From NCBI GenBank assembly GCA_008632985.1, contig QPGO01000079.1, positions 1 through 64,000 on the forward strand: a stretch of 64,000 bases of DNA, in the 5' to 3' direction. This document shows positions 15,515 to 61,880 of the stretch, in pieces. Each line of letters opens with the position of its first letter. Position 1 is the first letter of the stretch. Origin of the DNA: Psammoneis japonica. Lineage: Eukaryota. The translations under genes and the position numbers were made by a program. Below the pieces are notes generated by a model, which made no database searches, was not told the DNA's origin, and was given only the letters and a program-made list of their open reading frames with translations.

Positions 15515-15689
15515 CTTGCTGGATTTTTTCTTTCTTCAAGTACGTACGGTCGTCATCGTCCGCATTGAGCCTCGCGCCTCGCCCAAAATCATATCTTCAG
15601 GAAAAAAATCATTTTCTCCAATCTGGAATCAGCGCCTGTGCTAAAAGGCACTGTCTGTCTCCCGCCCCCCCCCCCTCTGCTGTACCGGT

Positions 15690-17200
15690 GAGGAGTGGGA
15701 TCGGTGTCTTGGACGGATCTGCACCAAGTGCCACCGAAAAAATCAACTGCCGACATCATGAGGTCCTCTTGCTGAAGAGCTCAAAGCCTGCTTGATCTGC
15801 TTCTGCTTGCCTGAAAGCTGCTTGTTTGTCAAAAATGAAGCTCCCAGTGCAAGAAAATCTGTTGTGGCCATGCTTGCCCATGATGCTCAATGGAAAACCT
15901 GTGAAAAACAGGTTCGTCATGCTTTTCCTTCCTGCCTGCCACACATGCACCACATGTGGTCACTGAGGCTTGTGCCAGTTGCTGGCAATGTGACAATGCA
16001 TTCCGACTCGAGCTTCCAAAAATGTGCAAAATGGGAGGGGAAATCACAGCAACCCACAAAGAACAAGCAACACACAGAATCCATGCAGGTTTTTGAACTG
16101 CTGGTGTGCAATGGACAATTCTGAGGTGTTCATGCTGTGTGAAAAAGGAGGAGAAAGTCTGCTGTGCATGTGCATTTTGTCTCTTTTGTTGCCGCAGTTC
16201 TCTCAGCATTCCCTGGGTTCTCCAACAAAGAGACCCCCAAACCATCAGTCTGCAGCTGGTGTGTCAGCAAGAGGCCAGTCATGCCAAGGCATCTTTTCAC
16301 TTTGGAGATGGGAGAGCTTGAAGTCTTGCTGCTCTCTTTCTCTCTTTTGGCTGGGTGTGGCAATGAAAACTTGGCTCCACGATTGAAGAAGCAATGCAAC
16401 TCATCCTGGAGTTGAAAATTGGGAGCTGAGCAGATGCTCCCAAATGGTTGGGAAGTGAAGGTGAATGATGTCAGTGCAAGATGCAACAGCATTGTGCACC
16501 CCCTCACAGCTTCTTGACATTTTGACCAACAAAACATGGAGCACACTCTGTCAAGATCTGCACAACACATGCATGCTGAGAGCCCCCATCAATGTCGCTG
16601 GAAATCCAACTGCTCCATTGAGGCAACTCATTGCACAGTGGATGGCAGATGTGTGGGAGAAGGTGCCAGGGGAACTTGCTTGAAGTCTCCTTCTTGATTG
16701 CTGGCTGCAAGGATCCAGCTGATGAGCCCAGCAACCCAATGTGCACGGCCATCGTTGAAGCTGAAACAGCAACGCAGTGCAGGGACAGACCAGTCAGCTC
16801 AATCTGCAGTGCAGCAGGTGAAGATGCCATTGCTGTGTTCAAGGAGCCAGAAGATTTTGGCGGAAGTGACGCAGGGGACAAGGGGGGGGAGGATTGATTC
16901 TGCAGTTTTTAAATTTCAGTTTCAGCATGATTTTATGTGCGGCAGTTTTGGCGGCACAAATCCCAGAGCTTGGGCAGCACTGGTCAACAATCTGTGCTTT
17001 TTGAAAATCTGTGCCTCTTTCTGCGGACCCCTGCATTGAAAATCTGTGCTGTCTGAACCGAAACCTGTGCCCCACAGATTTTTATGATGGGCTAATCAAT
17101 CACGGGCGCGGTGTCGCTCGCATCCATGCATGCGATGCACGCACGCACCAAGCTAGATTTTCATGCAGCACGCAAGACGCAAGACATACAAGAGACACCA
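15690..17200 (+). mobile_element. Hypermutated pogo/Tigger-like (DDE_1) transposase relic; TpA-depleted domain 1
   Basis: TALCTPSQLLDILTNK resembles the TxxxQPLDVxxN motif and PLRQLIAQWMADVWEKV resembles the C-terminal WxxxxW helix. No TA between 15686 and 16909. Confidence 0.6.
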
Positions 17201-22200: not shown

Positions 22201-25200
22201 TCAAACGACAACGTACTCCTTCTCACCAAGGGTTTCCAAGTCACTCTTTTTCCATGTCTTTGGTTCTAGCTTGGTATCAATCCATTCGGCCGTTTCTTCC
22301 GTCGTACTTGTGCGCAACGCCAGCGTCGTTTCCATGTTGATAATGAACCTGCCAACCCGAGACTGCACCACTTCAAACTCACGATCGTCCTCTTTCGATA
22401 CGACAATGGAGCACTTTGATAGCAACACTGACACCAATGGAGTCACGTCCTTGAGCTTGTCCTTGTCTGCTTCAGGTGGCCAATCGTAAATGTCAGAAAG
22501 GGGCGCTGGTTCTAGTTTGTGAAAGACCTCCTCTGCCGTAATCGAGTCCGGAAGTGATTGTGGTATTTCGAACAGGTGCAAATAGGAATCCACGGTTACA
22601 ACGGCCAATACTTTTTGCCATGTCTTGCTCGGCCTTCGTTGCTCCACAACTTTCATGGAGAAAATCAATTCGCTCGTTAGTGGCGACTCGAGCGCTTCAA
22701 GGTCCTTCACTTCTGGTGGAATGAACGTGCGTCGAGATCGATTGAGAATGGAGGATTTGTGCTGCGCTTCCTTCATTTGGACTCGCTTTGAATGCTTTTG
22801 AATCGTTTCATGAATATGTGTATCGACCTCCTGATCCATTTGTCGCTCCACCAACTCTTGCAATACGGGGGAATGCACAGAATCGAAACCCGACAAAAGG
22901 TCCACCTGTTGAGGCAAATACTCCGAGAGCAAATCTTGCAGTTTGCTTTGACGACCCGCTTCATTCGTCGTGACTGAATCGGCAAGACGTAGCAATTCCG
23001 GTGACACTTTGTTCCATAACTCGGATTGCAACTTTACCGCGACACGATAGCGCATCTCTGCCAACCACAAATCACGTGTATCTCGTTCCGCCATTGGGCT
23101 TTTTGGAGATAGCTTCGACAGGGATGATAGCGCCGTGCCGAGAGAAGCATGGGGATGGTCAGGGGATGCGGGAGGTGTTAATTTCCTTTCTGGAGTGCGC
23201 GCGAGTGAAGGTAAAATCAACGCCTCGCCGTAAACTCTAACATAAAAGTCTATGACAAAATTGTTTCATAAGAAGGTTAGTGACAAAGGCGAAAAAGACT
23301 TGTGAACCAATAATGCAGCCCTTGGACTTACCCCACGCACTAGCGACCTTCGATTCCGCCCCCTCGAGCTCTGCAATGATACCTTTACCCTTCGCGTCCA
23401 TTCTTCGCAAACGAGACTTGAGTTCCTGCTGATGGTTCGTCAACGTGCTCGCCTGCCTTGCTGAGGTAGATTCTTTCTTTGCACTTTCCTCAAATCTCCT
23501 GGAAATAACAGACTGAGCATCAATGAGAGATGTGAGCATGCCTCCACGTCTTTCTTCTGGTGTATCCAAACTATCTCGCCATGCTCCTTCATTCTGTACC
23601 ATAACCACCGTGTAGTCCTTATGACTGCGTTCTTCCGATAGACGAGTCTGTCTCCAGTAGCCCACCATGGAATTCCCCAAGATGTTTCCCTCGTCGTCCA
23701 AATACACGTCCTCATATATTTGTTGCATAGCCTCGCCGTAAGCTTGGTTTGCGTGAGCCACGCCGAGAACCAATCGATGGGCACGAGCGGTTTCTTGCAA
23801 ACCAGAGTTCATGACATCAACACACGATAGCCATTTTGTCGATGCTGCCTGGAGTTTCTCTGAGAACTCTGTGCGGCGTCTCTCCTCGAATGCTTTTAGG
23901 TCTACGTGATTTTTGGTCTTTAGCGTTTCCTCAAAAGGTGGATGAGAAGGAGCATCGCCAGCTGATGGTGTGGATGCATCGGTAGCAAATAACTTGTATC
24001 CTTCGTCGTCAGAGGAGCTCGGACTGAGGGCATCGTTAGAACTTCCCAAAACCGTAGCAGCTGCAGCCCGCACTCTAGGGTTAGCAAAATGACTGGTCGG
24101 GGAGCTGCGACTAGAGCTATCGTCTGACGATGAGAATGTCGTGGACAATGTGTCGTCGATTGTCACCTTCTCAGCAACGGGTTTGGAGTCTTCGAGATGA
24201 GGTGCTTCACGGTGCGCTTCGGCAGAAGAAATAGTATCAATAAGCATCGCTGTCTCCTCCTTGCTTGCATCGATCGCTGCCTTTTCAACTTGATTGAGAA
24301 ACGGATGCTCTTTCGTCTCATCACTGATAATATCTGTTACAACTTCATTCTGTGGTTTTGCCTGCTTTTGATCTCGTTCTGGCTGTGCATCTCTTTCAAT
24401 GACTTCTAACATCTCAGGGTTCTCCTCGGTTCCTCTGGCCTCGACTTTTTTCATCTTTGCCGTGGTAGATTCCGTAGTTGCAACGACCGCGGAAGTTGCA
24501 ACTTGTTTGGGAAACGTATGCTCCGTCTTCTCGCCACTAGTAATGTAAGATGACGGAGCAGCCGAAAAGGCCTGCTTTTCAGCTTCCACTTTCGGTACAC
24601 CTCTTTCGATGAGCTCTGGCATCTCGGGTGTCTTATCCTCGGTTCTTTTGGTCTCTGCTTCTTTGGAAATTTCCGTAATGGCTTTGACTAGAGTTTCTTT
24701 CTCGTTTAAAGAAATATCTTTGGGGGTGTCAACGTCAGCAATAGCAGAGGGTGCATTCTCAGACTCGAGTTCATCTATCACTGGGTGTGCTCGATCCCGC
24801 CGCTCCGACGAAACAGCCGCTGTCGAATCCTCTTCGTCCTTTGTATCTGGCGCTTCGTCCTCCATCGCCTCCATCTTCAATGGTCCTCTGTCTTGCTCAA
24901 CACGAGCTGCAGTCACACTCTGACCTGTAAGAGAGTTGCAACTATCATTGTCTATCTGCTGCTGTACTTTCTCGTCGTCCACAATATCTCTATCTGTTGT
25001 ACTTTCTGTTTCAGTTTCCTCGGGTTGACTCTCAACTGGCATAGGGATTTGAGTGCCAATGGCTTTCTCGTCCCACATTTCATCCTCCACCGGTGTTTCT
25101 GATTCATCTTTGATGCTTGAAGCGGATGCGGTGATTCCTATGGAAAGCCGGTCTCGACGACTCTCGTTGCCTACCCCGCCCTGTTGTGAAATATGCACAT

Positions 25201-26068
25201 CTACCGAATCTTCTGACTTACTTTGGGTTTCCGAACTATCACTTTCGTCATCATCTGATTCTTCAGGGCTACTCGACTCAGAAGACTTTTCTTCTTCTTC
25301 TTTGTCATCATCACTTATGACTACCGAAGAGCTTTTAAATTCTTCTTCGTTGCAGCCAGTGGACTGATGGTGCTCGCTCTTGCCTCTTTTCGATGTTGTG
25401 GCGGATGTCGCCCCTTCATCGATATAAACATCTCTCTCGCTATCAGACTCCTCCTCGTCCATATCTTGTCCCTCGAGAGAATACTCATCGTCCAGAATGC
25501 GCTTACCACTTCTTGCAAACATATCCGTAGGGGGTTGTGACGAGAATTCCGTCATGTCGTTGCTTCCACTGCTACTCGCAAGCTCTCGCAGCTCCTGCTG
25601 GTTTCCTTCAATCTCAAACAGACTTGTATCATGACTCACAGCACTCGCTCTCGTGGCGTTGATGCTGCTCCTTGTCTCGAACGGATTGGTAGTCTCCTTT
25701 TTGCGCTCATGGTCATAGAAGGCGGAAACGTCGTCGGGCATAGTTTCGTGCTGGAGATTCGGGACCATGAATGCAGTCGGGCTCGGTGTAACTCGAGCTT
25801 CTTCAAACTCTAACTCCATATTCCGCTCCACATCAAAAGGATTAGATGGAGGTGTGGCGATCTCTCGTGTTGGCGGTACGGGTGACGTTGCCGGAGAACT
25901 CAACAAGGGTTCCTTGCCTAGGACCTGGTTGATTTTTCGTTCGTGTCGTTTCTTTTTCTTGTTGCTCAACATTCCCCTGATTTTGCGGATTCGTCCTGTT
26001 TTCGACTTCTCTGCGGGACTTGACGCCGCCATCTCGTGAAGCTCATGGGAACTATCGTTTTTCATCAT
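22201..26068 (-). CDS. Large acidic low-complexity protein with C-terminal helical/coiled-coil region and PH-like domain
   Basis: Two exons joined in frame by a GTAAG...CATAG intron at 23331-23250. PH-like segment KTWQKVLAVVTVDSYLHLFE...LRTSTTEETAEWI. Confidence 0.75.
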
Positions 26069-26734
26069 GCGCTTTCCTTATGATTAGATCGACGTGACGT
26101 TGGGTGATTGAAGTAGGAGTCGAAGAAGCAAGCTGCCTTTGAGCGTTGAACGCTAAGACAGGGTGAACCAGCACCTTTCTTGTCGACAATCCAAATCGAC
26201 CACACGTGAAACACGCACGATCACTGCCCGCGGCAGAATACGACTGGCATTTTTCTTGGCCAACGCAGCCTTTCCGAAAACACGTCGATACAAGAAATTA
26301 TAACACTTGTAGATACGATGAACTTTGAAATATGTTGGATAAAATACTATCAATAATTTTGTACTTTTTCAGCAAGATAAATAACCTTCGGATATGAGCA
26401 AAATTCACGTTCACTATTGACTAAATTTGGTCTGCGGAGTTCGCAAGACTGTCGCACGATCATGGCGGGACTTATTTATCATGAAATTTCATATGAATCT
26501 GAATAGAAAAATGATCTGAAACGCGATCATATTGGGCGATAATATGTAGCTAAGGATCCGAAGAAGCATAATTTCCCAGCGGACGAAACGGTTACTGTAA
26601 TTTCAAACGCAACCAAGATCGTCCACGATCTATCGCTCACCATCACTTTTTCGATGGATTCCAACACAATGCCACACAAAAAACAACAGCGCAAAATTTG
26701 CCTTGTATCGCAGATAACGAACAACTCATTCATC

Positions 26735-27499: not shown

Positions 27500-28401
27500 T
27501 GACACACACAGCGACGCCTTTAGTGTCGAGGGTAATCTCGAAGCGCATCATGGATTTCGTGTTTTTGTTTGCCATGCCTCCAAGTTCTCAATCCTTAAAA
27601 AGATCCCAATCAGTAAAGTACGCCGGGACCCAGCTTGGATTAGAGATCTCGTTAAAAAGAGGCGAACGCATGACTTGCCCCTCTTCGTTAACACTGCTCT
27701 TTTCAAATGCATAGTTCAGGACTTTATGCAGAAGGACTGGCGCCCACCTTTGTTGAAGTTGGTAGACGAGACCGCAAAGCTGACACAAGTTACGGTTTGG
27801 TGTCATTGGCGAAGAAGAAAAGCTCCAAAGATTTCCACAACTACGGACATGGTTGCTTCATCGTATGCAGACTGTCATCGACGACATGATACAGGACCTT
27901 CGTGTAAATGTATCGGAGTTCCTTGACAGTGAGGAAACATTCCCATACTCGCAAAATCATTACTTAAACGAAACCGCATCTCGCCTGTGGTCCGAAAGAC
28001 TACAGGGTGATTTGATGGAAGCTCTTGGATTGACCGACATAATGCAAGATACAAGCGCCTCATTGACGATGGAGGGTACGAAGAGTACAATCATGGCCAT
28101 TTTTGAGCGAGACCAGAAAATTTCGGTTGAAGAGCACATGGCGGAAGACATGCAGCATGCGTTGGATGCCTATGGCAAGGTGCGCATGAAGCATTTTCTT
28201 GATGTCATTCCGATGAAATGCGGGAAGGTGTTTTTGGAGTTCGCTGAGAAAGCCAACAACGCCATAGCGGTGCACCTTACGGACGAGGAACTTGAACGCC
28301 TCGTGTGCGTCTCATCCGATGACATAATCAAACAGAAAAGCCTCAGGCGTAAGCACGAAGAGCTTGAAGCTAGACTGAAGGTCTTTGACGACCTTATTTA
28401 A
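27500..28401 (+). pseudogene. Mx/dynamin-like GTPase, C-terminal (middle/GED) fragment, frameshifted
   Basis: RRTHDLPLFVN...DWRPP, PYSQNHYL and ALDAYGKVRMKHFLDVIPM are present. No GTPase domain upstream; frame break near 27800. Confidence 0.7.
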
Positions 28402-28585
28402 AACCGATAGACACCATTTCAGTGGTTGTGGTTTCGACTGCGAAGCGTAGGTGTAGAGACGGGAGACAGACATGTAACAAGATAGTTAGTTCTTGATTTC
28501 AGAGTATCGGTTCATTGTGACGATTGAAAAGAGTGCAAAGCAAAGCAGCACCTTGAGCTCGGCAGCCCACTAAACTCACACTCGT

Positions 28586-29983
28586 TCAAACGGCGCCATA
28601 GTTTACATCGGTTCCCGCCTTGTCGGCGAAAACTTCCTTAACATTGGATCTCTGACTGCCAACCAAAGGATCACTTTCCTCTTCTGTATCATAGACGTGC
28701 CTATGAATCGAATCTGTAAGTTTCTTGGAGTCCACAAGGAATTGGCCAGTAGTAAAGTAGAAACCGACAGAAGTCAGGAGTCCGAAAATCATTCCGTTCG
28801 TAATGCTGTAGGTGAGCGGCATGAGAATGATCGTCAAGAACGCCGGTAGAGCATCACTCATGTTGTGCCACTTGATCTTGGCCGATTCTCCCATCATCAT
28901 TACACCCACAAGCACCAATACGGGTGCCGTTGCGCTGCTCGGGACAGCGCTGAACAAAGGAGCCAAGAAAATGCTGGCAGCAAAATACAATCCAATGACC
29001 GCGGCTGTCAGGCCAGTTCTACCCCCTTCCTTGACTCCGGCGGCGCATTCGACGCAAACAATGATTGGTGTAGACCCGAGAAAAGCCGCGACAAGAGTAC
29101 CCGCCGCCGAAGCCATGAATGCCCAAATCGATCCTGGAATCGTGCCATCCTCTCGAATAATCCCACCTAGGGTCGCCAACCCAAACATGACTCCAGAGAT
29201 ATCAAAGATACAAATTAGAATAAAAGCTCCAATCGCTGGATATAGCACTGACGCTTGTACAGAAAATACACCAAGTGGTTGTATATAGTCATTGTTGTGA
29301 TACGTAGGAATATCAATCACCGAGTCCGGCCAGTTGTTGTTCATAATCCAGTCAACAACAGTCAGTAGTGCAATACCAATCAAAATGGCACCCTTGATAT
29401 CGTGATAGAGCAATGATGCAACAAAAAGCGTTCCAGCCAGTGCCAACTGGAGAGGAGGGTCTGACAAGTCGCCAAGGTCGACCAGTGTCTTTTCGTTGGC
29501 GACGATCAAACTCACACTAACCATTCCAATCATGGCTATGAGCAATCCCATCCCAACAACGATCGCGTACTTGATTGTTTCTGGAACAATTTTCATGAGT
29601 AATGCGGACAGTCCTACAAGAGTCACTGTCGCAACAAGAATACCCGACCACCAACAAATCGTCAAAGCCTGTTCAAGCGTACAGTCGCCGGCTTGAACTA
29701 GTCCGTATGTTAGAAAAGCGCTGAGACCAATGCCCGGGGCACAGCCAAAGGGCAGGTTCCCACAAAGTCCAACAATAAAACATGCGGTTGCAGCCGAAAG
29801 TGCCGTAGCAAAGACTGCGTCGTCGTGGTCAACACCAGCTTCAGCCATAATCTGCGGATTCACCAGTAACAGATAGCTCAGCGTCAGAAAGGAAGCAGTC
29901 CCCGCACGGACTTCACTGATAACATCTGTGCCGCGTTCACTCAGCCGAAAGAACGAGTCAAGGCGATCTGCGACTGAACTCAT
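28586..29983 (-). CDS. AzgA/AZG-type purine permease (NCS2 family)
   Basis: 465-aa intact hydrophobic ORF with SEVRAGTASFLTLSYLLLVNP, APGIGL, ECAAGVKEGGRTGLTA and MPLTYSITNG. Confidence 0.95.
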   Translation of the reverse strand: MSSVADRLDSFFRLSERGTDVISEVRAGTASFLTLSYLLLVNPQIMAEAGVDHDDAVFATALSAATACFIVGLCGNLPFGCAPGIGLSAFLTYGLVQAGDCTLEQALTICWWSGILVATVTLVGLSALLMKIVPETIKYAIVVGMGLLIAMIGMVSVSLIVANEKTLVDLGDLSDPPLQLALAGTLFVASLLYHDIKGAILIGIALLTVVDWIMNNNWPDSVIDIPTYHNNDYIQPLGVFSVQASVLYPAIGAFILICIFDISGVMFGLATLGGIIREDGTIPGSIWAFMASAAGTLVAAFLGSTPIIVCVECAAGVKEGGRTGLTAAVIGLYFAASIFLAPLFSAVPSSATAPVLVLVGVMMMGESAKIKWHNMSDALPAFLTIILMPLTYSITNGMIFGLLTSVGFYFTTGQFLVDSKKLTDSIHRHVYDTEEESDPLVGSQRSNVKEVFADKAGTDVNYGAV

Positions 29984-30169
29984 TTTGATGGTATGATTAT
30001 AAAAGTTATGGATCTGATGAAAGGACCTGCGTTTTGCTTTTACTTCTCAACATCAACCGAGAAGAAGAAGCGACGGTAGTGTCGAAAAATTCTTGAGAAA
30101 AAGATCTCAAAAGACCCGGAGTGTGCGGGTCGAATCTTTCATTTTGCGCGGGAGAATACATCAACTTTG

Positions 30170-32700: not shown

Positions 32701-32710
32701 ACTTTTCGAG

Positions 32711-36488: not shown

Positions 36489-36596
36489 CCCCTTCGAGCC
36501 TCGGGACAGCAACACGACGACGTTGTATGTTGTCTTAAAGTCCATCACTCTCATCTCGTTCATTCACACCCACTTCAGCATTTAGTGTCATGACCA

Positions 36597-39818: not shown

Positions 39819-40415
39819 TGTTACGTACAGTATGTTGTATTTTGGTAGTTTGCGGTGCTGGGTTGGGGGGGGTTGGGGCAAGGACGACTCTATCGGTAAA
39901 TCCTTGGGTTGGGGGTGGTGGAGTGAAATATGCAAAATCCGTTTGTGGCGACTTCTTCGCTGTTCCCTGTTGCCAGTCGTGGCCACGACTCACGCTTAAG
40001 TTTTTCTCGTCGTGCCCCTGTCAGTGTGACGTCATCGCAAATTTTCAAAAATATCATTTTTTCCCTCCATCAGTCGATCGCACCGCCAACGTACTGTACG
40101 CATTATGATGAGAAATATGGTAAGGGCACCGCAAAACACACACCATACACAGTAGAGTAGAGGGTATGGTGTGACGGTGAAGAACGAAAGTCAAATGGAA
40201 TACATTTCTTAAAGAGAATTGCTCTCGATGCCTGCTCAGTTAGCTCGAATGTTTTATGGCGCTGCTGTCCGTCGGTTCAGTCCGACTAGTCGGATCGCCC
40301 ACTCGCCCCTTCCGAAATCAACGCTAGGGCCCTATGGCGACTCAGATGTTTGCGTTCGACACCTACCACCCAACCACCCTACCGGTTCAAACTTACTATA
40401 TCTTTGGTTATCGCA

Positions 40416-42212: not shown

Positions 42213-42399
42213 AAGCTGGTGAAGGGCAGAGTGGCCACGTAGCGGTAAAGCGAAAGTAAAATTAAGTTTTCCACTCTTATCCTGCTCTGTGTGGGTCTAT
42301 GTCGAGCCTCCCGTGGCAACTGGCAACATGTGTTCGTAAGTGGCGCTGGGGCTTATGACCGTCTCAAACGTGTCAGATGGCAGCACGTCTTATGGTGGA

Positions 42400-45300: not shown

Positions 45301-47570
45301 TGGTTTGCTTCCCTGCACAAGAAGCCTGGACATTGCAGCACCCAAATTTTTGTGCAACTTAAAACATTGAAGCCCGCTCTGAGCCAAGAACCAATGTGAA
45401 AGAGCATTTTTTGAAAATGTTGGAAAGCAAACATCCACAGCAACTCAGTCAATGATTTTCATGACTCTGTGGCAAAAACAGCTTTTGAAAAGCACCAAAA
45501 GGCTGCCAAAATGGGAGCAACCATGAGGGCAAAAAGAACATGAGAAGTGTGTCATGCAAATTGAGTGCCCAGCACTGGGCTTTTTGCTGACATTGCAGGT
45601 GATGAGACTGGAGCCATTGAAAACAGAGACTGTGCTGAAATGTTTCTCAAAGAGATTCAAGACCTTGTGTCAGCGGGGCAGATGTTGTGAGATGAAAGAT
45701 TGAAAGCAACAAGAGTTCAAGTTTGAAGAACAACACACCTCTGGTGCCACCCCAGCAGAGAGCTGCCTGGAGCCACCAAGGTTTGGCTTTCTCCAAGACA
45801 GCCCAAGCATGACAAAGGAGGAGGTGCAGCAGTTTGCAACAAAGGTGCAGCTGTGAGTGCAAGCATCTGGATTGCCATCAACTCAACAATTGATTTGAAA
45901 AGGTGGGAATGTCTGGGAAAGCCTTTGGGCTGGGAGGGAGAAACCTGTCTTGGTGCAACAGAGAAAAACATCACAAGAATGAGTTGGTGTCCCAGCGCCC
46001 AAGTGTGGCAAGTGGAAAGCAGCAAGTGCTGCACGTGGACAGGCAAGCATGTGTCCTTTTTTCAAAGTCTCTTGTGCCATCTTTGACAGCTGGCCATTTT
46101 GTTTCATTTTCAAACAGCACCATCCACACCAGATTTTTGACTTTGACCGCAACTTGTGCCCTCTGTCTCAAGCCACACAAACACATCAAGCTTTGCAACA
46201 TGTGTTTGCAATGCCTTGCTGCTTTTTACAAGCAATTGTCTCATCTCCAACAGCGCCAGCCATTGGTGGCAAGGACAACTCTTGTGAGCAAACAGCCCAT
46301 GTCATGCATGCCAAAAGGTCTCTGTTCTCAACTTCTTGATCAGGCTGCCAGCACCTCACTGTGTTGGTGCACTTTAAGCTCTTTCCACCATTTGTGGTTT
46401 GTTGAGCTGACAGCACATGTGCAGACAAACCACTGCCACCACATGAATCTCTCAAGAGTTGGGGTTCATGAAGAAGCAATGATGAGTCAAAGAGCAGAGC
46501 TCAAAATCACAATGAATCGAAAAGCCCCAAAATGGAGTGCAGATGCAGCAGTCATGCCACATGCCCTCATTGTTGAAATTGGGGGGTGAGCTCAGCAAAT
46601 GTCTTTTTGACTCCATTTGCAGAGCTCTCTGTTTTGCAGGTTGCAACATGCACCAAGTTCTTGTTTCTGGAGCACCCCTGCATGCTGCGCGCGCAACTTC
46701 TTTGCCATGAATGTCAGCAAGATGCAGCAGAGGACTTTTGTTCACAATGGGTTTGCTTGCAGCTCTGACACAAGCCAGCCACTCAATTGGTTGGACCACA
46801 GGTGAGAGCAAATGTGCTTCCTCCCAGCCAGTCTGTTTGCACATGGGACAATCATTTCTGTGCCGACGCTGGTCTTTTTGTGTGTCACATTCTTTTTTGC
46901 AGAGACACTGCACCGCACACTGAGCCAACACATGCCAGCCACTCATCAACTCCAAACTGGTCAGCCAAAAGTGAGAGCACACAAGTTTTGTCCCAGCTGG
47001 TCTGTTTTTGCAGATTGGACAATCATTTCTGTGGTGACAGTCTTGTGCGCCACAGTTTTGTTTTTGCTTTTGCAGAGAGACACAACACACACTGTGAATG
47101 AAAGGCAAAAAAGAAACAAAATTTCTCACCTTGTGGATGGAGAGCTGATGCCACAAGTCCATGCCCTTGCTCCACAGAGCCAGCGGAACTCTCTCTTTCT
47201 TTAGAGGCTCTGTGTTTCCCAGCCAGCCAAGAGAGGCAAAAAAACACAAATCAAGGCGAGCAAACAGCAGCAGCTTGCCAAAACAAAAGAGCACAGAAAT
47301 GGGCATGCCATGCCCCAACAAAACTTTTGATTTGACTCTCGTGTCACACACCAAGAAGGGAGGTCATGCAAAGAGGCACACAACAATTTCTCTGTGGCGC
47401 TGGTGATGGAGAGCGCAGGGTGTGCAACAGGAGCAGTGCAGCACGAGCCATCACAAGCAAAGCAAGTTGCAGTGGATGCACTGTGCTCTGACTTGAGAGC
47501 AAATCATCGTGTCACAATCTCTCCCACAACATTTTGCACAGTGTGCACCCAATCTGTCAAACATGTGGAA
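42400..47570. mobile_element. Nested, unclassified hypermutated repeat relics; TpA-depleted domain 3
   Basis: About 20 TAs in 5 kb, with none in 45362-46226 or 46377-47201. Internal ~170-bp duplication (46801/46971) encoding HRNDCPxCK on the minus strand. Confidence 0.55.
44494..44940 (+). mobile_element. TRIM-like miniature LTR element with tRNA-like internal Pol III boxes
   Basis: 110-bp direct repeats at 44494-44603 and 44831-44940 (TG...CA in the second). Purine tract GGGGAGGAG directly before the second repeat, TGTT on both flanks, and internal B-box GGTTCGAAACC at 44658. Confidence 0.55.
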
Positions 47571-47766
47571 ACACAGTAAACAAACATTTCCCTCCAACAG
47601 CGCCTGTAAGTCGTCCGCATCTCCCTCCAACACCGTCCATCCGTCGGCGGGATCTGCATCTGTGTAATCAATCCACGTGGAGAAAGCAAGAAGATAGCAC
47701 TGCACGCATGCGCTCTCATCATCAACAAGAAATCAAGCAATCAAGCAGCAGCAAGTAGCCACCACC

Positions 47767-50038
47767 ATGGCGGCGGCCAATGAAAACCGAGCCACGCTAG
47801 TGGTGGGATTGTCCCTACCACAATCAAGTCGTAAGTATTGTTTTTGTTGTTGCACTGTTATGGATTGCTATTCTTATTCTTTTTTTCTCACCCCAAACTC
47901 TTCTCACTCATCACTCATCTGTACACAGCCGACGCAGCACGCTTGTTGCAAGTCGCTCGCGAGGATGGCTACGACTATGTCACCACCATGCTTCCCTCGA
48001 ATACTACTGGGGAAAGTAGAAGTGACGTGACGGATTTGGAATCGCGTTGGTGGCGCACGTCGGTTGTGGGATGTGTCGCTCCAGAATTGCTGCAACAAGA
48101 GCGATCTCATTGGGAATCTCTACTCCAAAGCCAAGCCGACTGGGCCACGCACATGTCTATTCCTGCAATACTCTTACCACTCTCGACGGATCCCATGTAT
48201 GTGCGTGCCATTTCCAGTATTGCACCCGCATCATCCGGTTCCAACGGCCAAGTGTGGATCAAGACGCGATTAAACGAGACGGATCTCAACCGATTTTCAG
48301 CCATTCACGCTGCCAGCGACGGAGCGTCCAATGTAGGCATACTGTTGGAAATGGAAAACATTGCTTTGCCGGCCGTGTCGGGAGCGGCCGCTTCCACTGT
48401 AGCTGGGTACATGACGTTAATTCACAAGGCGATTGGCTCCCAACTCAAGGCTGTCTGTTTTCCAACGTCTGTGTTTCTCACAAATAAACGTGGCTACCCG
48501 ACTCTCTCCAAAACTCACCAAGTATTGGTGACGGAAATTTTGAGACGCATTGGACGAACGGTACGCATTCTGGTGGAGGGACCGCCCGTGCATTTATTGG
48601 AGTCCCCCGATGCACCCGTCGGTGCCACGGGGTGTTTGCCCTACCTTCAATATATTCGTCACATTCGACAGCGACCGGAAATCACCAGCGTGCTTGACAC
48701 GGAGGAAGCCACCATGGAGGAACCCTATCTCGATCATTTGCAACGTCCCCTTCAACCGCTCGGCGACCATTTGGAATTTCAAACGTACGAAACCTTTGAA
48801 AAGGATCCCGTCAAGTATGCGCAATACAAAAAGTCCATCTTGCTGGCACTGCGCGATGGTTGGACGTCGGTTCAAGACCCCTCGGAGGCGCTGACTGTCA
48901 CCATTTTGATTGTGGGCGCCGGCCGTGGTCCCCTCGTGACGGCTGCACTCGAAGCGGTGGAATTGTGCAAAGTCCTTCCCGAATTTGCCAATCACACGCC
49001 CCTCCAAGCACGGATTTGGGCCGTGGAAAAGAACCCATCCGCCGTCTTGTATTTGCAATCCATGGTCAAGACGCATGCCGAATGGAAACCCATTCGTGTC
49101 CTGCAAATGGATATGAGGGACTTGGCCAAAGCCAAGTTGGGAAAAAATGTCGTGGATATTGTCGTTTCGGAGTTGTTGGGGAGTTTTGGGGACAATGAAT
49201 TGTCGCCCGAGTGTTTGGAGGGGGTGAGAAAGACGGGGCTATTAAAAGACACGACTGTGTGTATACCACAACAGTTAAGTGTGTCCTTTTGTTGGTGGTG
49301 TTGATATTATCACTGTTGCTTTTTCTCATCTCAACTCATCCATTTGCGACTCCTTCTGTTATTCACAGATACACGTCATTTCTAGCACCCGTCTCGTCCA
49401 TGCGTTTGCATTCCGAAGCTCGCGCCCAAGCGTTTTTTCCCGCCTCGGCGGCGGACGGCTTGGATTCGGCACCCATGGGTCATTTAAAAGCAATGGAAAC
49501 GCCCTACGTGGTTCGGTCCCACGCGGCTTGTCAGACTCATGTCGAAAAGCCGTGTTGGGAGTTTGTGCACTTTTCTTCCGAACATCAAAAAATGCAACGA
49601 CATGTGGAGCTCGAATTTTCCGCCGACCCGACGCACGGTGCGGGATGCGGCAGTGGCTACGGTCCGTTTGATTCGGCCGTGGCAACCATGGCCCAAGCGT
49701 CGGGCAATGCCTCTTCTGGAAGTATTTTGGTGCATGGCTTTTTGGGAACCTTTTCGTCACGGCTGTACGCGTCCACTGCGGAAGCACCCAAAATTAGCAC
49801 GGCGCCCACATCCTTTTCAGCAGGCATGTTTAGTTGGTTTCCCTTGTATTTTCCCCTCTCGACACCCCTCTTGGTGCCGTCCAATGCGCGACTTGTAGTG
49901 AACATGTGGAGACGGACGGATTCAGTCAAGCGCGTGTGGTACGAATGGAGTGCTCAAGTTGTCGACAAGGATGACAATGTTCTCTCCATGACGCATGTTC
50001 ACAATGCCAATGGGAGATCCTATCATGTAGACATGTAG
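47767..50038 (+). CDS. PRMT5: Protein arginine N-methyltransferase 5 (3 exons)
   Basis: Exons 47767-47830, 47929-49273 and 49369-50038 splice in frame. Motifs FLTNKRGYPTL, LQPLGDHLE..TYETFEKDPVKY, VGAGRGPLV, VSELLGSFGDNELSPECL, MFSWFP and WYEW. Confidence 0.95.
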
Positions 50039-50329: not shown

Positions 50330-52000
50330 GGACTATCATGTTAGCATTGAAATGCATATGGAAACTGTTTTTTGGTGTCACCAATCGACTTGGCATAGTG
50401 TAGACACAGGAGAAACCACCCCATGACCCGTTGAATAATGGAATCCCCCCCACGACGGATCTGTGCTCCATGCCATCTCTAGAGAGGCTGCGACAAGTGA
50501 AGCAAGAGCCCTCATAAAAGGTCGGCTTGGCACTGCGGCCGATTCTTGAATCTGAGAATAGCTTTCCATCTGCACAGTTGGCAGACGGCATCCTGAAACA
50601 AGCCCAAGGCACCAGAGGAGCACCCTCCTTCAGACCTTGAGCCCCTGTGCTCAGCACAGGACCCTGTGGAGAGTTTGGGTTTGCCCACCCACCCCCTTGT
50701 GCAGAGCAGGGCTTCTGCCAAAAGCTCTGCCCCACAATGCTCCCAAGCATTTCCAATGTCGAGTTTGCTTCTTGGCGGTTCTTGGCTGGGATCCCAGAAG
50801 CTCAAGTTGGAGGCGGGGGCAGCTGAAGTGCTCACTCGAATCCTTGAGGGTGCCGCACTCCAACCTCCAACATCACTGTGGAGCTCACAGAGAACAAAAG
50901 GGAACAAAACTCTAGAGCATGTTGCAAAACTCAACAAAAGTCAACATGACATGACAGTCAATGTTGGACAGCAATCCACATCAACAATGTCCATGCTGAG
51001 AGTGTTCAAAAAGAAAGATCTCAGGGTGTCAGGAGTTTGTGAAAAACCGGGGCAACATGGCCAAGAGGCAACATGAGTCCAGGGGCAATGATGACAACAG
51101 AGCACACATGAGTGAATGTCTGCAAGCTTTGCCATCATCAATGTGTGACAATGGCATGATGCGGGGGCAAAGTGTCCATTTGACTGGATGACAGGGCTGC
51201 TGCTCACCAAGCGTTTCTTCGCTTGCAGCCGCGGCACCTGCAGCATTCAAGACAGTCTTTCGAAGCCAGGCACATTGTTGTGGCAGTCAAACAGTTCAAA
51301 AAGGGTGCACTGCATTGATGTTGCCAACACAGCAACTCCACCTTTGTGCACACATGCCTGAAGCAAGAACTCGGTGCCCCCGCCCTCTTTCCCGGAAGGA
51401 GTGGCACACTTCTGGAAATGTGGCAGACATTGCTGAGAGCCTTGAAGATGCACGACATGTTGGCTGACAAGAGCAGGAAGAAAGGCAGCCAATCTGTTGT
51501 TGAGGCAGCCCACAGCCCCACTGTTGTGTCCTTTTTCTTTCTTGTGACTCTCTTGCCATCCGCCGTTCCTCGCTCCAGCTTCCAGCTGACATTGGAGCAA
51601 ACAGCGACCTGGCAATCTCCAAAACATGTGTGCTGCCACGAATGAAGCCTCTGCGGGAATGTCCTCCTGTGGTCTTCTGTCCAGATCCACCTCCTCATCT
51701 TCATCTGGCACGTCAACCCCTCAAAGGGTTTGCTGCCAGACTCCATCGCGGGCGGCGCAGACTTGACGCTGCTGGATCATCGCCAAGCCAGCCCTCAAAT
51801 GGATGATTCTTTCCACACGAGGCACAGTGAATGAGGCCAATTGTGCAACGTTAAATGCAGAGACAGCGTCTTTGTGTTGTTGGCAAAACGTTCAAAACAG
51901 TGGAAGCGATGGCAGCAAACTGCCGCACCGCACAACAGGATCGAGGCGGCATTCACACCGCGACGCGAAGAAAGATTCAGAACAACATCGTCATCACGAT
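50330..52000. mobile_element. Unclassified hypermutated relic; TpA-depleted domain 4
   Basis: No TA in 50915-51851, a stretch bounded by CTAG and TTAA survivors. Lies between two genes of normal composition. Confidence 0.55.
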
Positions 52001-52470
52001 CTTCGAATGAACTGAAATTTTGAATGATTTTCTACAGAAACAAATACATTCATTTCCTTGTTGCACTCTGGTATCTGTCCATGCTGCATAAGATACGGTA
52101 GTGACTGTACATACGTAAATCGTACGAGAACAGGTCATTGAAGATCGCCTCCACGCCACGTAGCGCTTGGGTACTCATTCTACGTAATCATCCGTTGGCC
52201 CTCGCAACGCCGCTCCCCGGCATTTTGGCTTTTTCTGTCTCGATCTCCACGTTCGCGCATCGCATCTCTCAGCAGCAACAACAACCGCTCTTATCGTTGT
52301 TGCCAAGAAGAACTCGCTTTTCCTTTTGACGCTCTAGACGATCGTTGTGTTTTTGTTTGCATTCCAATTGCAACACAAGCACTAAAAGCAGTCGTCACCA
52401 CTAGTCTACTCTCTCGTTCCGTCTCCGCCTCGTCTTCGACGGCCTCGCGCGCAGGCCGTGCGCGCAACAC

Positions 52471-54973: not shown

Positions 54974-55156
54974 ACTCAACATACCAGAGAGAGTGGCAGC
55001 GGTGGGGTTGGTTATGTAGTGTCGGATTTCTTAATCGTTGGATTTTATTGTGATTTGTTGGCTAGAGATTTAGTTCTAGTTTATTGTGTATCTAGTTGTG
55101 TACCGGTAGCTTGTTGAGACGTGACCGCGTAGGGAAAAAGGTCGCTTTGTCTATGA

Positions 55157-57154: not shown

Positions 57155-57429
57155 TATAGTTCTATTTGTTTCATCTCATTGGGAAGCCGTCGGTAAAAAG
57201 CATTTCTCATTTCGTCGTCGATGAGAGGTATGAGCTATCATACCCGGTGTTGGTTCACGCGCGGTGCGGTGGGGCGGTGGGGCCAAGGATATAAATCCTT
57301 GGGTGGGGCGGGGTCCAGAGCAGGGTGCCGCACCTGCATGCCCGTTCGTTCAAGATTCAAGATGTGGTCGCGGCGCGGCTCTGCTGGCTAGCTAGAGGGC
57401 CCTCTAGAGCCAGCCAGTTTAGCTCTAGA

Positions 57430-60400
57430 GGTCGTGTTCCTCACCACTCATGTCTTTCGCACGGTGCTCTCGAGTGTCGACACTGCTCTTGAACAAAGAC
57501 AATGGACCAGCAGAGACATGGATTTCTGAGCGCAGAGGTGGCGTGGCTCGCTTGTGTGAGATTTGTGCTGGGTTTGGTTTGTGTTTTGTCAACTTGAGTT
57601 CACTGGAGACCTGAGAAAAGGGAAAAATCAAAAAATGTGAAAGATGACATCTTGTGTGTTGTTTCTGCAAGTGTGCTGTAATTTGTGATGGCTGGGTGGT
57701 GCAAAATGGAGCAAGAAATGAAGCGATTCGATTCACTCCCTCATCTGCCAAATCATTGAGGACATCCAAGAATTTTCTCACCTTCGCCTTTTCCTGCAAG
57801 TGGCTTGGTTGTGGTGCTGACAGAGTTGGCAAAGATCTGCCACTGACTCTCCTGCAGCGGTGACATGGAGCTGGAGCCTGCAACAGCGAGCTGGCCAAGA
57901 TTGCTCCAAGCCAAGAATGCTCTGTCTTTGCTTGTTGTGTTTGTGACCAACGGTTGGGGGGCATTTGTGAGGAAACTCACAGAGAGTTTTAGGCATGGGA
58001 GATCCTTTGTGGCGCCATTTCTCTGCACTCGTTCTCAAAGTTTGACACATGGGTGGTGTCAGATGGAGTCAAAAGCCCACATGCTGGCACAAAATGTGCA
58101 ACGTTTGATTCACTCCACTCACTCAAAAGTGCCATGATGATCAAATTCACTCCTGCAATTTCCGTTGCAAGCCTGACCCATTTTCCAGCCAAATGATTGG
58201 GGTGTCATGCCGCCATGATTTGTCATGTGGCTGCATTTGGAGGTGCGCTGTTGCTGTTTTTTGCAACAAAAGTTGAGCAAACATTGAGCCATTTCCGGGC
58301 TTCCACAAAACTCATGATGCTGCTGAATCACGCATCACCTCCAACCCAGCTGCCTTCTTCCTTCCTTCACACAAGCTTGCTCCACTTGATGCAACATTTC
58401 AGCTGCATGCACAGGTGTGCTGGAACCATCCTTGGGGAGACTGGGCTGTTTGCGCCGGAGCTTCTTCCTTTGCTGATGTTTCTGCAGCTGAGCAGGGTCG
58501 CTGTGCACTGCCAGGATGCCAACAGTGCACTCGGTCTGCCCCGAAGCATGGTTTAAAGAGGCGCAGGCTTGCAGGGCTTGTTCATGCAATTTAGAAGCCC
58601 CTGCCCAACTTCAATGTCTTTGGTCTCCAGCCAGACATTGGCTCATCTAACAGCAGCAAAAAAATCATTTTTGCACCACATGAATGCCAAAAGGCAGTGT
58701 TTCATGGCAACCACAAGGGCTGGACAAGGCCCGACAATGACATCTTCTCTCAATGATGCAGGCACACACCTTCTTCCACTTGCTTGCATGCCACACAGCC
58801 TCCTTTTTGGTGATTGGCAGCACCTTGTGCTCATGTTGCCTGCACCTCCTTAGAACTCTGAAGCTTGTTTTTTCAGCACTCCTGTGCATGTGCGTGTTGT
58901 GTTTTTCTGCACAAAATGGTCACACCCCCCTGGGCATTTTTGGTCAGAGGCTGCCAAGATCTTTCACAAACTGTTTCGTGGCAATGTCAACAGGAGTGTG
59001 CTTTGTGCAGGCAGCCATGCAGCAGCCTGGTTCTGCCATGTCAATGACAGCTTTGTCCCAGCAATGACATTTCATGCCCATGTTGTTCGCATCGAGGACA
59101 CCTTGAAAGTGCGGATGAGAGCAAATCTCTCAAAGAGACACTTTGGTCATGATTCGATGGCACAGACGGTGAGTTGCTGGGTGAGAATCACTGCCGCACA
59201 TTGCAGAGATTGCAAAATGGTGTTTGTGAGAGAGAAGCAATCCAGTCTGCGACAATGTCCGCAATTTTTTGATTGTTGTCATCCACAATCTTGACATCAC
59301 TTTCACACTTAAAAAAGGATTTGGCTGGGGACTTGAAGATGAGCCGCAACTGGGGTCATGGGCTTGAAAATTGAATTTGGGCCACAAGTGCCAAACCACA
59401 GGGTGATCTTCTTTCAGGAGCACTCTTTCAGTTTAGGAGCAGGCTTTGTCAACACATGATCAACAGCATCATCACCCGTTGCAGACTCCAACTCTTAGAA
59501 TCCCACAGCTCTGTTCCGCCCTTCCTCGTCCTCTCTTGTCACCACACCATTGTCATCTTCCATCATTGACACCTCACGCAGCCACCCCCATCGTGCTGTT
59601 GAAACAAACACCTTGTTGCCTTTGATCAAACCAAGTCAAGTGCTGTTGGGAGGACGGAATGACACTTCTCGTGGCAAACGAAATCTCGCACACTGAGCCA
59701 CCTGAACACCATGCTTCAACGCAACAAAATCTCCCACAACAATGACGAATCCTTGCGCGGACACACTTTCATCGGTTGCACAGATCCTTCTGACCAGTGG
59801 GTCATGGGACTTTGAAAAAGTGGGCGCATGGATTTCCAGCCCATCCGCCCAAAATGTGTTGCTGCCCCATCACGCAGCGCACCTTCTGGCACTTTTCCAA
59901 TGACGAGAGCACAAGTTCAAAATCATCAACGGCGAAAATGGCGCTTGTCTCGGCGATGCTCGTTTCAAAGACAATCGTCTTGATGCCACCAGCAACCCCT
60001 GTCCTGTGACTCATGTGTGTGGCTTGTGGCACTGTGGCGAGAAAATCAAGTGTGTTGAGTTGCAGTTGTGTGTCTTGTGGTGCAGCATTGTGTTTTGATG
60101 CTTTTTGGGTGTGTTGTTGCCTGACCTTGTCTTGCTCATGGTTCTTTGTTTCGTCTCATGTTCCAGAGCAAGGTGCTGACATGTTCTGTCATTCGCGCCA
60201 TTGATGTGTTGTGAGTGAAGTGGATTGAGCTGTGTGGATTGTGGGGTCGACCTCGGTGACCAGCACTGCTGGTCAATCTGGGGTGCATGAGGAACCGCTT
60301 CTGGTCATTTGTTCGAGACAGCCAGACTTGGAACACAACAAAAACACCTGCGCTGGCTTGTGTGCGACAATTTTGGGCCATGATTGCGTGCTCAATTTGT

Positions 60401-61880
60401 TTGGTCATGTGTCCTTGGAGTTGAGCATGATCAATCTCTCGCTCGTCCTCGTTGTTGGACAAGTTGGTGCCGCTTTCTGGTCGTTTGTTTGAGATGGCCA
60501 GACTTGGAACTCAACAAAAACACCTGCACTGGCTCATGTGCGACAATTTGGGGCCATGATTGCGCGACCAATTTGTTTGGTCATGTGTCCTTGGAGTTGA
60601 GCGTGATCAATCTCTCACTCGTCCTCGTTGTTGGGCGCGTTGGCGCCGCTTTCTGGTCGTTTGTTCGAGATGGCTGGACTTCTGACTCAACAAAAACACC
60701 TGGACTGGCTCATGTGCAACAATTTTGGGCCATCATTGCGTGCTCAATTTGTTTGGTCATGTGTCGCTGGAGTTGAGCGTGATCAATCTCGCGCTCGTCC
60801 TCATTGTTGGGCACACTGGGACCGCTTTCCAGTTGTTTGTTCGAGATGGCTAGACTTGGAACTCAACAAAAACACCTGTGCTGGCTCACATGCGACAATT
60901 TTGGGCCGTGATTGCGTGCTCAATTTGTTTGGTCATGCATCCTCAGAGTTGAGTGTGATCAATCTCTTGCTCGTCCTTGTTGTTGGGCGCATTGGTGCCA
61001 CTTTCTGGTTGTATGTTCGAGATGGCTAGACTTCCAACTCAACAAAAACACTGGGCTGGCTCACACGCGACAATTTTGGGCCATTGTTGCGTGCTCAACT
61101 TGTTTGGTCATGCATCATTGGAGTTGAGTGTGATCAATCTCGTGCTTGTCCTCGTTGTTGGGCGCACTGGGACCGCTTTCTGGTTGTTTGTTCGAGATGG
61201 CTAGACTTGGAACTCAACAAAAACACCTGGACTGGCTCGCGTGCAACAATTTTGGGCCGTTGTTGCGTGTTTTCGATGCCTCTTCTTGGAGCCAAACAAG
61301 AACACCTGGGTTGGCTTTCATGGAACATGTTTGGACGACATTTGTGTGCTTGATTCATTTGGTCATGTGTCCTTGGAGTTGAGTGTGATCAATCTCGCGC
61401 TCATCCTCGTTGTTGGGTGCGCTGGAGCCGCTTTCGCGTCAATTTTGTGGTGTGTTTCTCCCTGGAATGGCCATTTTGCGCCTGGATTGGCTTGCACGCA
61501 ACAACTTTGGACTCTCACTGTGTGTTTGGATCATTCAGTTGTGCGTCCTTGCAGTTGAGCCGGAGTGCGAAACTTTGTCGGATGGTTTGAAAGCGGGGCA
61601 AGACGCGGAGGTTTTCTGTGGCATGTGGCTTGCAATTGCATTGCAGCCCAATTTGTGTGCTTTGTCAACATCAGCAAGGAATTGCTCAGCTCTGCTGCAT
61701 GGCAGCTCATCGCATTTTGCCTGTCTCTGCTGGCCATTCGCGTGGTCGGGATGATTTTTTAGCCGCGATGCGCCCTGTTTCGCAACGCGCGTGCTGAGGT
61801 GCGTGTGCCCACTTTTTCCAAAGTCCCCCAACCCATTCCATCTCCATGCTGTGCTGCAAACATGTCAGTGACGGAGTTAA
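57430..61880. mobile_element. Unclassified hypermutated relic; TpA-depleted domain 5
   Basis: About 14 TAs in 4.4 kb, none in 59498-60850. Begins after a CTCTAGAG doublet and contains a 176-bp tandem array. Confidence 0.55.
60295..61440. repeat. 176-bp tandem repeat, ~6.5 copies
   Basis: Units start at 60295, 60470, 60646, 60822, 60998 and 61173. Many differences fall at TG/CA/CG/TA sites. Confidence 0.95.

Follow-up and report, generated by a model that had tools for sequence, protein, structure and literature searches.

What can remove one dinucleotide, TpA, almost entirely from some domains of a chromosome and leave it in the DNA between them? This question is raised by a contig of the diatom Psammoneis japonica (GenBank assembly GCA_008632985.1, contig QPGO01000079.1), of which positions 1 to 64,000 were examined; this single 64-kb stretch, here called the window, has 48.6% G+C and contains 1809 TA in total. 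The original prediction for this DNA had located five runs devoid of TA and had ascribed them to hypermutation of TpA to TpG or CpA in repeats. With an offset of only 2–3 bases, these runs are the five longest TA-free gaps of the window: 30298 to 31945 (1647 bp), 59496 to 60851 (1355 bp), 15683 to 16910 (1227 bp), 50913 to 51852 (939 bp), and 45360 to 46227 (867 bp). The longest TA-free gap in non-island DNA measures 361 bp, and the longest across 200 mononucleotide shuffles 197 bp. With 0.038 TA per position, the rate outside the islands, the number of such runs expected per window goes from about 1e-11 for 867 bp down to about 1e-24 for 1647 bp. The runs are confirmed as real and are far beyond chance. 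The account that we consider most likely is that they are the completed footprint of a DNA mutator that is specific for TpA and guided by chromatin, like the one recently reported for Bigelowiella natans, a chlorarachniophyte (Mettrop et al., bioRxiv 10.64898/2026.01.13.699255).

Upon merging 200-bp windows with at most one TA, a procedure with which a 500-bp profile agrees, the TA-free runs are found to be the cores of five larger islands totalling 18,050 bp, 28% of the window. Island 1 (15651–16925, 1275 bp) lies between an HtrL_YibB-like gene and the gene that follows; it has 2 TA (observed/expected ratio, o/e, 0.03), a CG o/e of 0.21, and TG and CA ratios of 1.85 and 1.59. Island 2 (30301–36175, 5875 bp) has 23 TA (o/e 0.06) and a CG o/e of 0.35; its start is separated by about 255 bp from the 5′ end of a xanthine/uracil permease open reading frame (ORF). 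Island 3 (42651–47600, 4950 bp) has 18 TA (o/e 0.05) and a CG o/e of 0.19, with just 2 CG in the whole of 42651–44400; it is broken up by a young high-copy element and stops about 235 bp short of the ORF of a PRMT5 gene. Island 4 (50526–52025, 1500 bp; 3 TA, o/e 0.04; CG o/e 0.47) is located between PRMT5 and a gene for a cNMP-binding protein kinase. Island 5 (57426–61875, 4450 bp; 15 TA, o/e 0.05; CG o/e 0.55) holds a 176-bp satellite; the start of the island lies some 250 bp away from the 5′ end of a galactosyltransferase ORF.

When the islands are pooled and compared with the rest of the window, the o/e ratio of TA is 0.05 versus 0.57, that of CG 0.36 versus 1.00, and that of TG and CA 1.73 versus 1.17, while G+C is nearly the same (0.493 versus 0.483). 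These values match what had been claimed of the composition, namely that A and T are abundant, that TG and CA are in excess and that CG is reduced yet present. AG/CT are raised in the islands and GA/TC lowered. The islands occupy intergenic space and end about 120–500 bp from the flanking ORFs. Their edges are sharp: TA density switches inside one 250-bp bin at all 10 of the 10 island borders, and at about 8 of the 10 the CpG drop falls in the same bin. Other intergenic DNA has normal TA, for instance at 9.4–13.2 kb, 17–19.3 kb, and 62–64 kb. The segment 20651–21600, within kinase-gene ORFs, is also TA-low (10 TA in 950 bp) but has normal CpG and TG/CA; it is of ordinary coding composition, no island, and serves as a negative example.

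The direction of the change can be read from the balance of dinucleotides. In comparison with the rest of the window, TA is short by 34.7 and CG by 36.0 per 1000 island positions (70.7 in all), and TG and CA are in excess by 36.8 and 33.6 (70.4 in all). The total of pyrimidine–purine (YR) steps is unchanged (242.0 per 1000 in the islands and 242.3 outside), as expected if only transitions occurred. Against the non-ORF background only, the deficit is 78.5 and the excess 69.3. A forward simulation in which non-island DNA had 95% of its TA (in two rounds) and 63% of its CG converted to TG or CA reproduces the island profile with a dinucleotide correlation of 0.97 (0.78 for unconverted DNA) and a trinucleotide correlation of 0.956 (0.76 unconverted), and G+C stays level. 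We then regressed the product spectrum on the 44 trinucleotides free of both TA and CG, a choice that keeps depletion itself from driving the fit. The regression yields 41 converted TA per kb (bootstrap 35–47) and 29 converted CG per kb (21–38), to be compared with a non-island density of 38 TA per kb; in control blocks it yields 0.3 converted TA per kb (−4.4 to 5.4).

The original prediction that a second process operates beside CpG decay, turning TpA into TpG or CpA on both strands about equally, to near saturation and in discrete domains, is borne out by this mass balance, by the simulation and the regression, and by the satellite described below. CpG decay, that is, deamination of 5-methylcytosine (5mC), is itself evident: CG has gone to TG or CA in all five islands (CG o/e 0.19–0.55), and this change is polymorphic among the units of the array in island 5. 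It cannot, however, remove TA, and of some 70 extra TG/CA per kb it accounts for about 29. Three simpler causes were considered and rejected. As sole cause, CpG decay reaches an R2 of 0.51, compared with 0.62 for the TA term alone and 0.73 once both terms are included. Biased gene conversion is not TA-specific and would not accompany CpG loss. Selection against TA would have to maintain zero TA across 1.6 kb of non-coding DNA, which exceeds any known constraint.

The satellite allows conversion to be followed step by step. It is a tandem array of 5.6 copies of a 176-bp unit on the forward strand (60295–61269), with degenerate units that reach about 61556. That arrays are present had been stated beforehand, and is confirmed by this satellite and by some small arrays elsewhere. 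Five units were compared at 39 YR steps, of which 19 are polymorphic among units. At 11 of the 39, some units carry TG and others CA at the same step; six of these show TG and CA only, four have CG too, and one, which reads CA, CA, TG, TA, and TA across the five units, has TA too. Transition-variable sites lie inside YR steps in 30 of 41 cases. As a control, two duplicate pairs from outside the islands were compared, and neither has a TG/CA double difference. CG is retained in 36 of 65 cells of the CG-bearing steps, and steps that lack an ancestral pair in every unit are for that reason unlikely to be former CpGs. Candidate former-TA steps number 7 per 176 bp, with 6.7 expected from the TA density of the host DNA. 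In island 2, the paralogous contigs considered below differ from the window in the same manner, by CA in one and TG in the other, at 35043/4, 35048/9, and 35238/9 (among the differences listed). As units and paralogues differ by TG versus CA at the same step, the conversion took place in place, after amplification and, in the array, independently from unit to unit.

This observation bears on the possibility that the composition is intrinsic or was acquired before integration, either because the islands derive from a virus or element that avoids TA or because they are cDNA of an RNA hyper-edited by an ADAR-like enzyme. In its favor, none of the islands was found to have a TA-bearing relative, and the paralogous contigs over 32670–36000 look TA-poor too, just 1 of the 35 in-island differences listed (in 40 of 655 rows) giving TA in the other copy. 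ADAR-type editing, moreover, favors a 5′ U, according to the accessible text of the B. natans preprint (bioRxiv 10.64898/2026.01.13.699255). The satellite units and the paralogues speak against it, and acquisition before arrival is excluded at least for island 5 and for the multi-copy part of island 2. In addition, the host's own DNA has a TA and CpG density equal to the conversions required; five unrelated sequences would have to be in the same extreme state with their edges at gene borders; and searches with the island ORFs returned no viral or retroelement protein relic. The strand-coordinated runs that hyper-editing of a one-strand RNA would leave are absent, and the preference at the 3′ side of the adenine (T>C>G>A, see below) is unlike the 3′ G preference of ADAR. 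For the islands as a whole we regard this explanation as quite improbable.

Both strands are used about equally (TG +36.8 and CA +33.6 per 1000), and the order in which TG and CA follow each other is close to random, with a runs-test z between −0.8 and −0.2 for five of the six segments; for island 4, z is −2.55. Nothing in this order points to a processive single-strand editor. The sequence context is far from uniform. Sixty-one TAs survive in the islands, 40 of them in YTAR words (Y, pyrimidine; R, purine). Relative to background, survival is highest for TTAA (0.60), followed by CTAA/TTAG (0.40) and CTAG (0.15); it is about 0.06–0.10 for GTAA, CTAC, and GTAC, about 0.01 for ATAA, ATAC, and ATAG, and 0 for ATAT. 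An additive model with four parameters, in which the 3′ neighbor of each adenine of TA determines how fast that adenine is lost and host-like ancestral contexts are assumed, gives rates of 3.75 for T, 1.8 for C, 0.83 for G, and 0.27 for A. It fits all 10 tetranucleotide classes and improves on a flat rate with a chi-square of 102 (3 df, p 5e-22). The lost adenine has a 3′-neighbor preference TAT >> TAC > TAG > TAA, and the few surviving TAs are consequently mostly YTAR (TTAA, TTAG/CTAA, CTAG). Everywhere in the islands TA loss is more complete than CpG loss; as it is complete even in island 5, where CpG loss is about 45%, TpA is the faster target.

The loss is specific for TpA. AA/TT are not depleted in the islands (81.3 versus 78.5 per 1000) and AT is only mildly low (o/e 0.78). 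This weakens an explanation based on error-prone repair synthesis by a DNA polymerase eta-like enzyme at WA motifs (W, A or T), the mechanism of A:T mutation in antibody hypermutation, which would operate in heterochromatin that is repeatedly repaired. Such a polymerase makes A→G errors with a hotspot at TA, and gaps left by repeated excision of deaminated 5mC would explain why the edges are common with those of CpG decay. WA, however, includes AA, which is undepleted, and the loss is restricted to TA, essentially complete and strand-symmetric. In the accessible text of the B. natans study, furthermore, every A→G or T→C mutation of the viral regions lies on TpA. Error-prone synthesis of this type therefore appears very improbable as the source of the islands.

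It is less straightforward to decide which of the two bases of the TpA pair is altered. Hydroxymethyluracil occurs preferentially at TpA and TpC in the DNA of dinoflagellates, and 5-formyluracil mispairs with G. A thymine modified at the palindromic TpA, for instance by a TET/JBP-type oxidation to 5-hydroxymethyl- or 5-formyluracil, might mispair with G and give T→C, which is read as A→G on the complement. Sequence cannot separate an A→G change on one strand from a T→C change on the other. The palindromic target, the equality of strands and the lack of strand-coordinated runs would fit an enzyme that reads double-stranded TpA, and the context rule, written from the side of the thymine, becomes ATA > GTA > CTA > TTA. 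No TET/JBP gene was detected among the window ORFs in the Pfam scan, and the authors of the B. natans study argue, in the text accessible, for adenine deamination with a putative ADAT2-like candidate. Modification of thymine is, in our opinion, unlikely, though it deserves to be kept in mind, and on the grounds just given we infer that adenine deamination is to be favored.

The letters of the assembly were compared with contigs from three public runs of one sample, aligned over positions 28001–48000. A 2299-bp contig covers 28643–30941 with 2 differences and crosses the left edge of island 2 into the neighboring gene; a 1001-bp contig covers 31737–32737 with 1 difference; and a 10,745-bp contig covers 44974–48000 with 7 differences and crosses the edge of island 3 into the flanking gene. 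The sample may be the assembly's own source, and the agreement of the contigs is therefore a technical check and no biological replicate. An artefact of assembly, base calling or polishing at modified bases would look like CA or TG in the window where another contig of the sample has CG, as miscalled 5mC would, and this is seen at 30729, 30740, and 31819. The same difference is found at 35070, 35236, and 35275; these six sites of island 2 are CpG decay present as allelic or paralogous polymorphism. Considering that separately assembled contigs of the same sample are at least 99.7% identical to the window over 2.3, 1.0, and 3.0 kb and are joined to the flanking genes, and that no artefact is known that removes TA, we give this explanation practically no credence.

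Outside the islands, at 28216–28641, a contig of run X1 differs from the window at five places, with A/T in the window and G/C in the contig each time. Three of the five differences fall on TpA (28325, TA to CA; 28572 and 28640, TA to TG), and a contig of run X2, from the same sample, agrees with the window at 28216 and 28325. With n=5 only, these differences may reflect polymorphism, in ordinary DNA, of the mutational type seen in the islands.

The contigs also provide an estimate of copy number. Summing contig depth at 80% likeness or more, the flanking genes have a depth of 85–160. The island segments 30002–32669, 42675–44008, and 45343–47343 have a single-copy-like depth of 60–135, and the right part of island 2 (32670–36000) has a depth of 200–445, that is, about 3–6 copies. 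The three single-copy segments are as TA-free as the 3–6-copy segment. The view that the process is targeted to repeats is therefore contradicted for much of the island DNA: single-copy segments are equally depleted, and the islands have no sequence in common. One X1 contig of about single-copy depth (86) has 33344 and 36466 linked by 32 other letters; a form without some 3.1 kb of island 2, including an acidic ORF and the small arrays, thus exists as an allele or a paralogue. The right end of this junction falls in an 11-bp tandem repeat (TGACACACTAG, 36433–36476).

As to what the islands are, the DNA between them is unremarkable. A Pfam scan of the inter-island ORFs identified BTB, protein kinases, a xanthine/uracil permease, DUF6824 with CRAL/TRIO, PRMT5, a cNMP-dependent kinase, and a galactosyltransferase; these are ordinary eukaryotic proteins. 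The best named relatives of the PRMT5 ORF are all from diatoms, with up to 64% identity (Bacillariaceae sp., Nitzschia, Cylindrotheca, Pseudo-nitzschia, Seminavis, and Ditylum), which places the host among the diatoms and sets it apart from B. natans. The islands themselves yielded no protein family. None of the 10 ORFs of a first island set matched a Pfam family; none of the 97 island ORFs of at least 90 amino acids (aa) rose above the cut-off (best 18.9 bits, cut-off 21.9); and none of 150 island ORFs of 45–89 aa matched at E≤0.001 (150 of 181, the remaining 31, at 59375–61883, having been left out). Two island ORFs compared with viral contigs gave no match. As the conversions change an estimated 7% or so of the bases, domains of transposable elements (TEs) or viruses should remain detectable if present. 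No inverted repeat of 60 nt or more exists in the whole window; terminal direct or inverted repeats at the island edges do not exceed those of shuffled sequences (15 each), purine/pyrimidine space included; no long terminal repeats were found for the islands; and no homology from island to island appears with exact 30-mers in the purine/pyrimidine alphabet. Of the TE hallmarks with which the domains had been said to coincide, only the arrays consequently hold. The DDE relic is without a Pfam match among the 97 and 150 ORFs, and the terminal inverted repeats are missing, with neither a 60-nt inverted repeat in the window nor edge scores outside the shuffle range.

A few small tandem arrays lie inside island 2, and its multi-copy part contains an ORF of 314 aa on the reverse strand (35276–36217) for an acidic, lysine-rich low-complexity protein. 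It is only here, at 35401–36150, that a coding-like 3-base purine periodicity is found within islands (chi-square 18–26). Relatives of this ORF were sought among 610 candidates, with none at E≤0.001, and among 1.84 billion representatives, with none, and it has no Pfam match. The window contains no Rfam match at gathering thresholds and no tRNA gene called by ARAGORN.

Island 3 is interrupted by a younger sequence. Around 44.0–45.3 kb the summed depth rises to about 30,000, compared with 60–140 elsewhere, which was traced to an element at 44494–44939 on the forward strand. It consists of two terminal direct repeats of about 95–109 nt (44494–44602 and 44831–44939) around a 228-bp core. The repeats show 4 differences over their well-aligned 95 nt, three of them at CG/TG, TA/CA, and CG/CA steps. 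The core contains a tRNA-like motif, GGTTCGAAACC, which we take to be a B-box; neither ARAGORN nor Rfam calls anything in the element. It keeps its CpGs and 6 TA, two of them in GTAC, so that conversion in it fell short of saturation. Judged from these features, it looks like a short interspersed element (SINE) or a miniature terminal-repeat element inserted after the island had mutated.

Some further repeats lie outside the islands. Perfect 84-bp tandem repeats (3373–3753) within a 606-aa ORF (2211–4031) and a 556-bp tandem duplication with nested 81-bp repeats (7978–9239), in a region with ORFs at 7.7–9.4 kb, both have normal TA. A dispersed direct repeat (11872–12286 and 25671–26084), whose copies are 86–91% identical and 13.8 kb apart, overlaps with one copy the 5′ end of a 946-aa ORF (23237–26077) and is probably a paralogous gene start.

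Taken together, these data lead us back to the TpA-specific mutator and to how it might work. The islands are most likely silenced non-genic DNA between ordinary diatom genes, probably old insertions, one part being an element of 3–6 copies and one island carrying a satellite. In them an A:T→G:C process specific for TpA has most probably converted TA to TG or CA, on either strand about equally and site by site, until saturation. Ordinary CpG decay, CG to TG or CA, has proceeded alongside, with losses from 45% to 80%; this decay speaks for CpG-methylated heterochromatin, present or past, in the islands. At most borders the two processes end at a common edge, to within about 250 bp. Taking into account these shared edges and the equal effect on single- and multi-copy DNA, the target looks like a chromatin domain and not like sequence homology. 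Diatom DNA is methylated mainly at CpG, as the accessible part of a published study describes (PMC5124317): methylated blocks of repeats, up to 30 kb long, take turns with gene-rich DNA that is unmethylated, and the island pattern would fit such blocks. As to the chemistry, we prefer a scheme in which a TadA/ADAT-type deaminase, recruited to silent chromatin, would turn adenine in DNA into inosine. We likewise infer a link of the TpA process with 5mC and a role in genome defense; the original proposal of a genome-defense mutator is plausible, and it matches the mutation-accumulation data of B. natans as far as these are given in the accessible text.

Several observations weigh against this interpretation or qualify it. 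An unmutated progenitor or sister copy was found for none of the islands. Direct polarization is given at two sites only (the satellite step with TA and the TA versus CA difference of the young element), and the remaining evidence on direction assumes ancestors like the other DNA of the window. All the contigs come from one sample. Islands 4 and 5 have right ends at which CpG recovers 0.5–2 kb ahead of TA, which means that the TA and CpG processes are not strictly coupled. The young element keeps TA in the susceptible word GTAC; the process would hence be inactive on it now, episodic, or blind to it. ApT is depleted in the islands (o/e 0.78 versus 0.93–0.94) and GpC is in surplus (1.28 versus 1.01–1.06), both beyond what a model with two conversions predicts; the ancestors may have differed in composition, the share of TA-derived changes may be larger than assumed and that of CpG-derived changes smaller, or ApT may itself be under a weaker A:T→G:C pressure. 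To our knowledge, the tRNA substrates of ADAT/TadA never have a U at position 35, and the 3′ T preference of the island process does not match them for that reason. Finally, the sequence of the islands shows no Pfam, viral or other homology that would point to a foreign or mobile origin.

There are practical consequences for annotation and for experiments. The islands give long false ORFs because only TGA stops remain in them, and TA-free islands defeat homology-based repeat annotation. The specificity TAT > TAC > TAG > TAA, with TTAA nearly immune, can be tested on the 231 B. natans mutations and on candidate enzymes. Diatoms are a major and genetically tractable group of algae.

How does the island process compare with systems already known? 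With repeat-induced point mutation (RIP) of fungi it shares dense, dinucleotide-linked transitions that are confined to selfish or silent DNA and tied to methylation and silencing. RIP, however, makes C→T changes, mainly CpA to TpA, by which TA is created and G+C lowered, whereas here TA is destroyed and G+C stays level; and RIP requires duplicated sequence, whereas single-copy segments are equally hit here. Hypermutation of parasitic nucleic acid by deamination is also the action of APOBEC3 on retroelement cDNA and of ADAR on double-stranded RNA. APOBEC produces C→T or G→A in strand-coordinated runs, in contrast to the strand-symmetric and unclustered changes of the islands. ADAR acts on RNA, in animals, with a 3′ G, and the island process on chromosomal DNA, after amplification, with a 3′ T. 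Before 2026, we know of no cellular process that was understood to destroy TpA in DNA specifically.

The TpA to TpG/CpA process is not unprecedented, the B. natans preprint of 2026 being the precedent. Full-text searches of the literature, subscription journals excepted, gave it as the only report of such hypermutation, and gave none for diatoms. According to the accessible text of that preprint (Mettrop et al., bioRxiv 10.64898/2026.01.13.699255), mutation in two integrated viral regions is about 1000-fold faster than in the remaining genome in mutation-accumulation lines of B. natans. Of the 231 de novo mutations in these regions, 230 are of the type A→G or T→C, and each of the 230 turns a TpA into TpG or CpA. 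The B. natans genome has 124 clusters of 1-kb windows that are poor in TpA and rich in CpA+TpG; DDE and reverse-transcriptase domains are enriched in these clusters, where 81% of the proteins are without annotation. DNA adenine deamination is proposed there, with an ADAT2-like candidate. When the thresholds of that study are applied here, as its accessible text gives them, 18 of the 64 1-kb windows pass, in runs of 6, 6, 4, 1, and 1. No such island was seen in 80 metagenome loci around PRMT5 relatives (517 kb; about 16 diatom-like, most of them short), whose longest TA-free runs (up to 800 bp) have 60–70% G+C and a CpG o/e above 1.

The two systems have the same single target, TpA, and the same products, TpG and CpA. 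They differ, as far as the accessible text of the preprint goes, in several respects. The host is a diatom, a stramenopile, here and a rhizarian in B. natans. The islands are saturated, most passing windows having a Rho_TpA of 0.01–0.14, versus 0.45 in the B. natans region derived from a nucleocytoplasmic large DNA virus (NCLDV). The B. natans targets are integrated viral regions, and the islands have no recognizable viral or transposon gene. The islands are depleted of CpG too, and CpG has 0 mentions in the main text of the preprint; a 3′-neighbor rule holds here, and that main text is without the words "context" and "trinucleotide" and without diatoms. The evidence is a fossil footprint, read from sequence alone, in one case and mutation-accumulation lines in the other. 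New in the window are the saturation, the edges mostly common with CpG decay, and the context rule TAT>TAC>TAG>TAA.

The B. natans study, in its accessible text, showed the TpA process in action and left its range, targeting and enzyme open. With its footprint in a diatom, the process is no peculiarity of one chlorarachniophyte; it can shape a sizeable share of non-coding DNA, having been completed in 28% of a gene-dense 64-kb stretch; and edges mostly common with those of CpG decay point to heterochromatin as its guide. We put forward, tentatively and as an idea that may well prove wrong, that an old chromatin-guided TpA mutator is common to diatoms and B. natans, possibly throughout the SAR group (stramenopiles, alveolates, and Rhizaria), and that it edits the palindromic TpA step, through deamination of adenine or modification of thymine, in CpG-methylated silent DNA of any copy number, preferring TAY and sparing YTAR. 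If so, such a mutator would, given time, erase every susceptible TA of an insertion and be approachable by genetics in transformable diatoms, and it would be the third mutational genome defense of eukaryotes beside fungal RIP and animal APOBEC.

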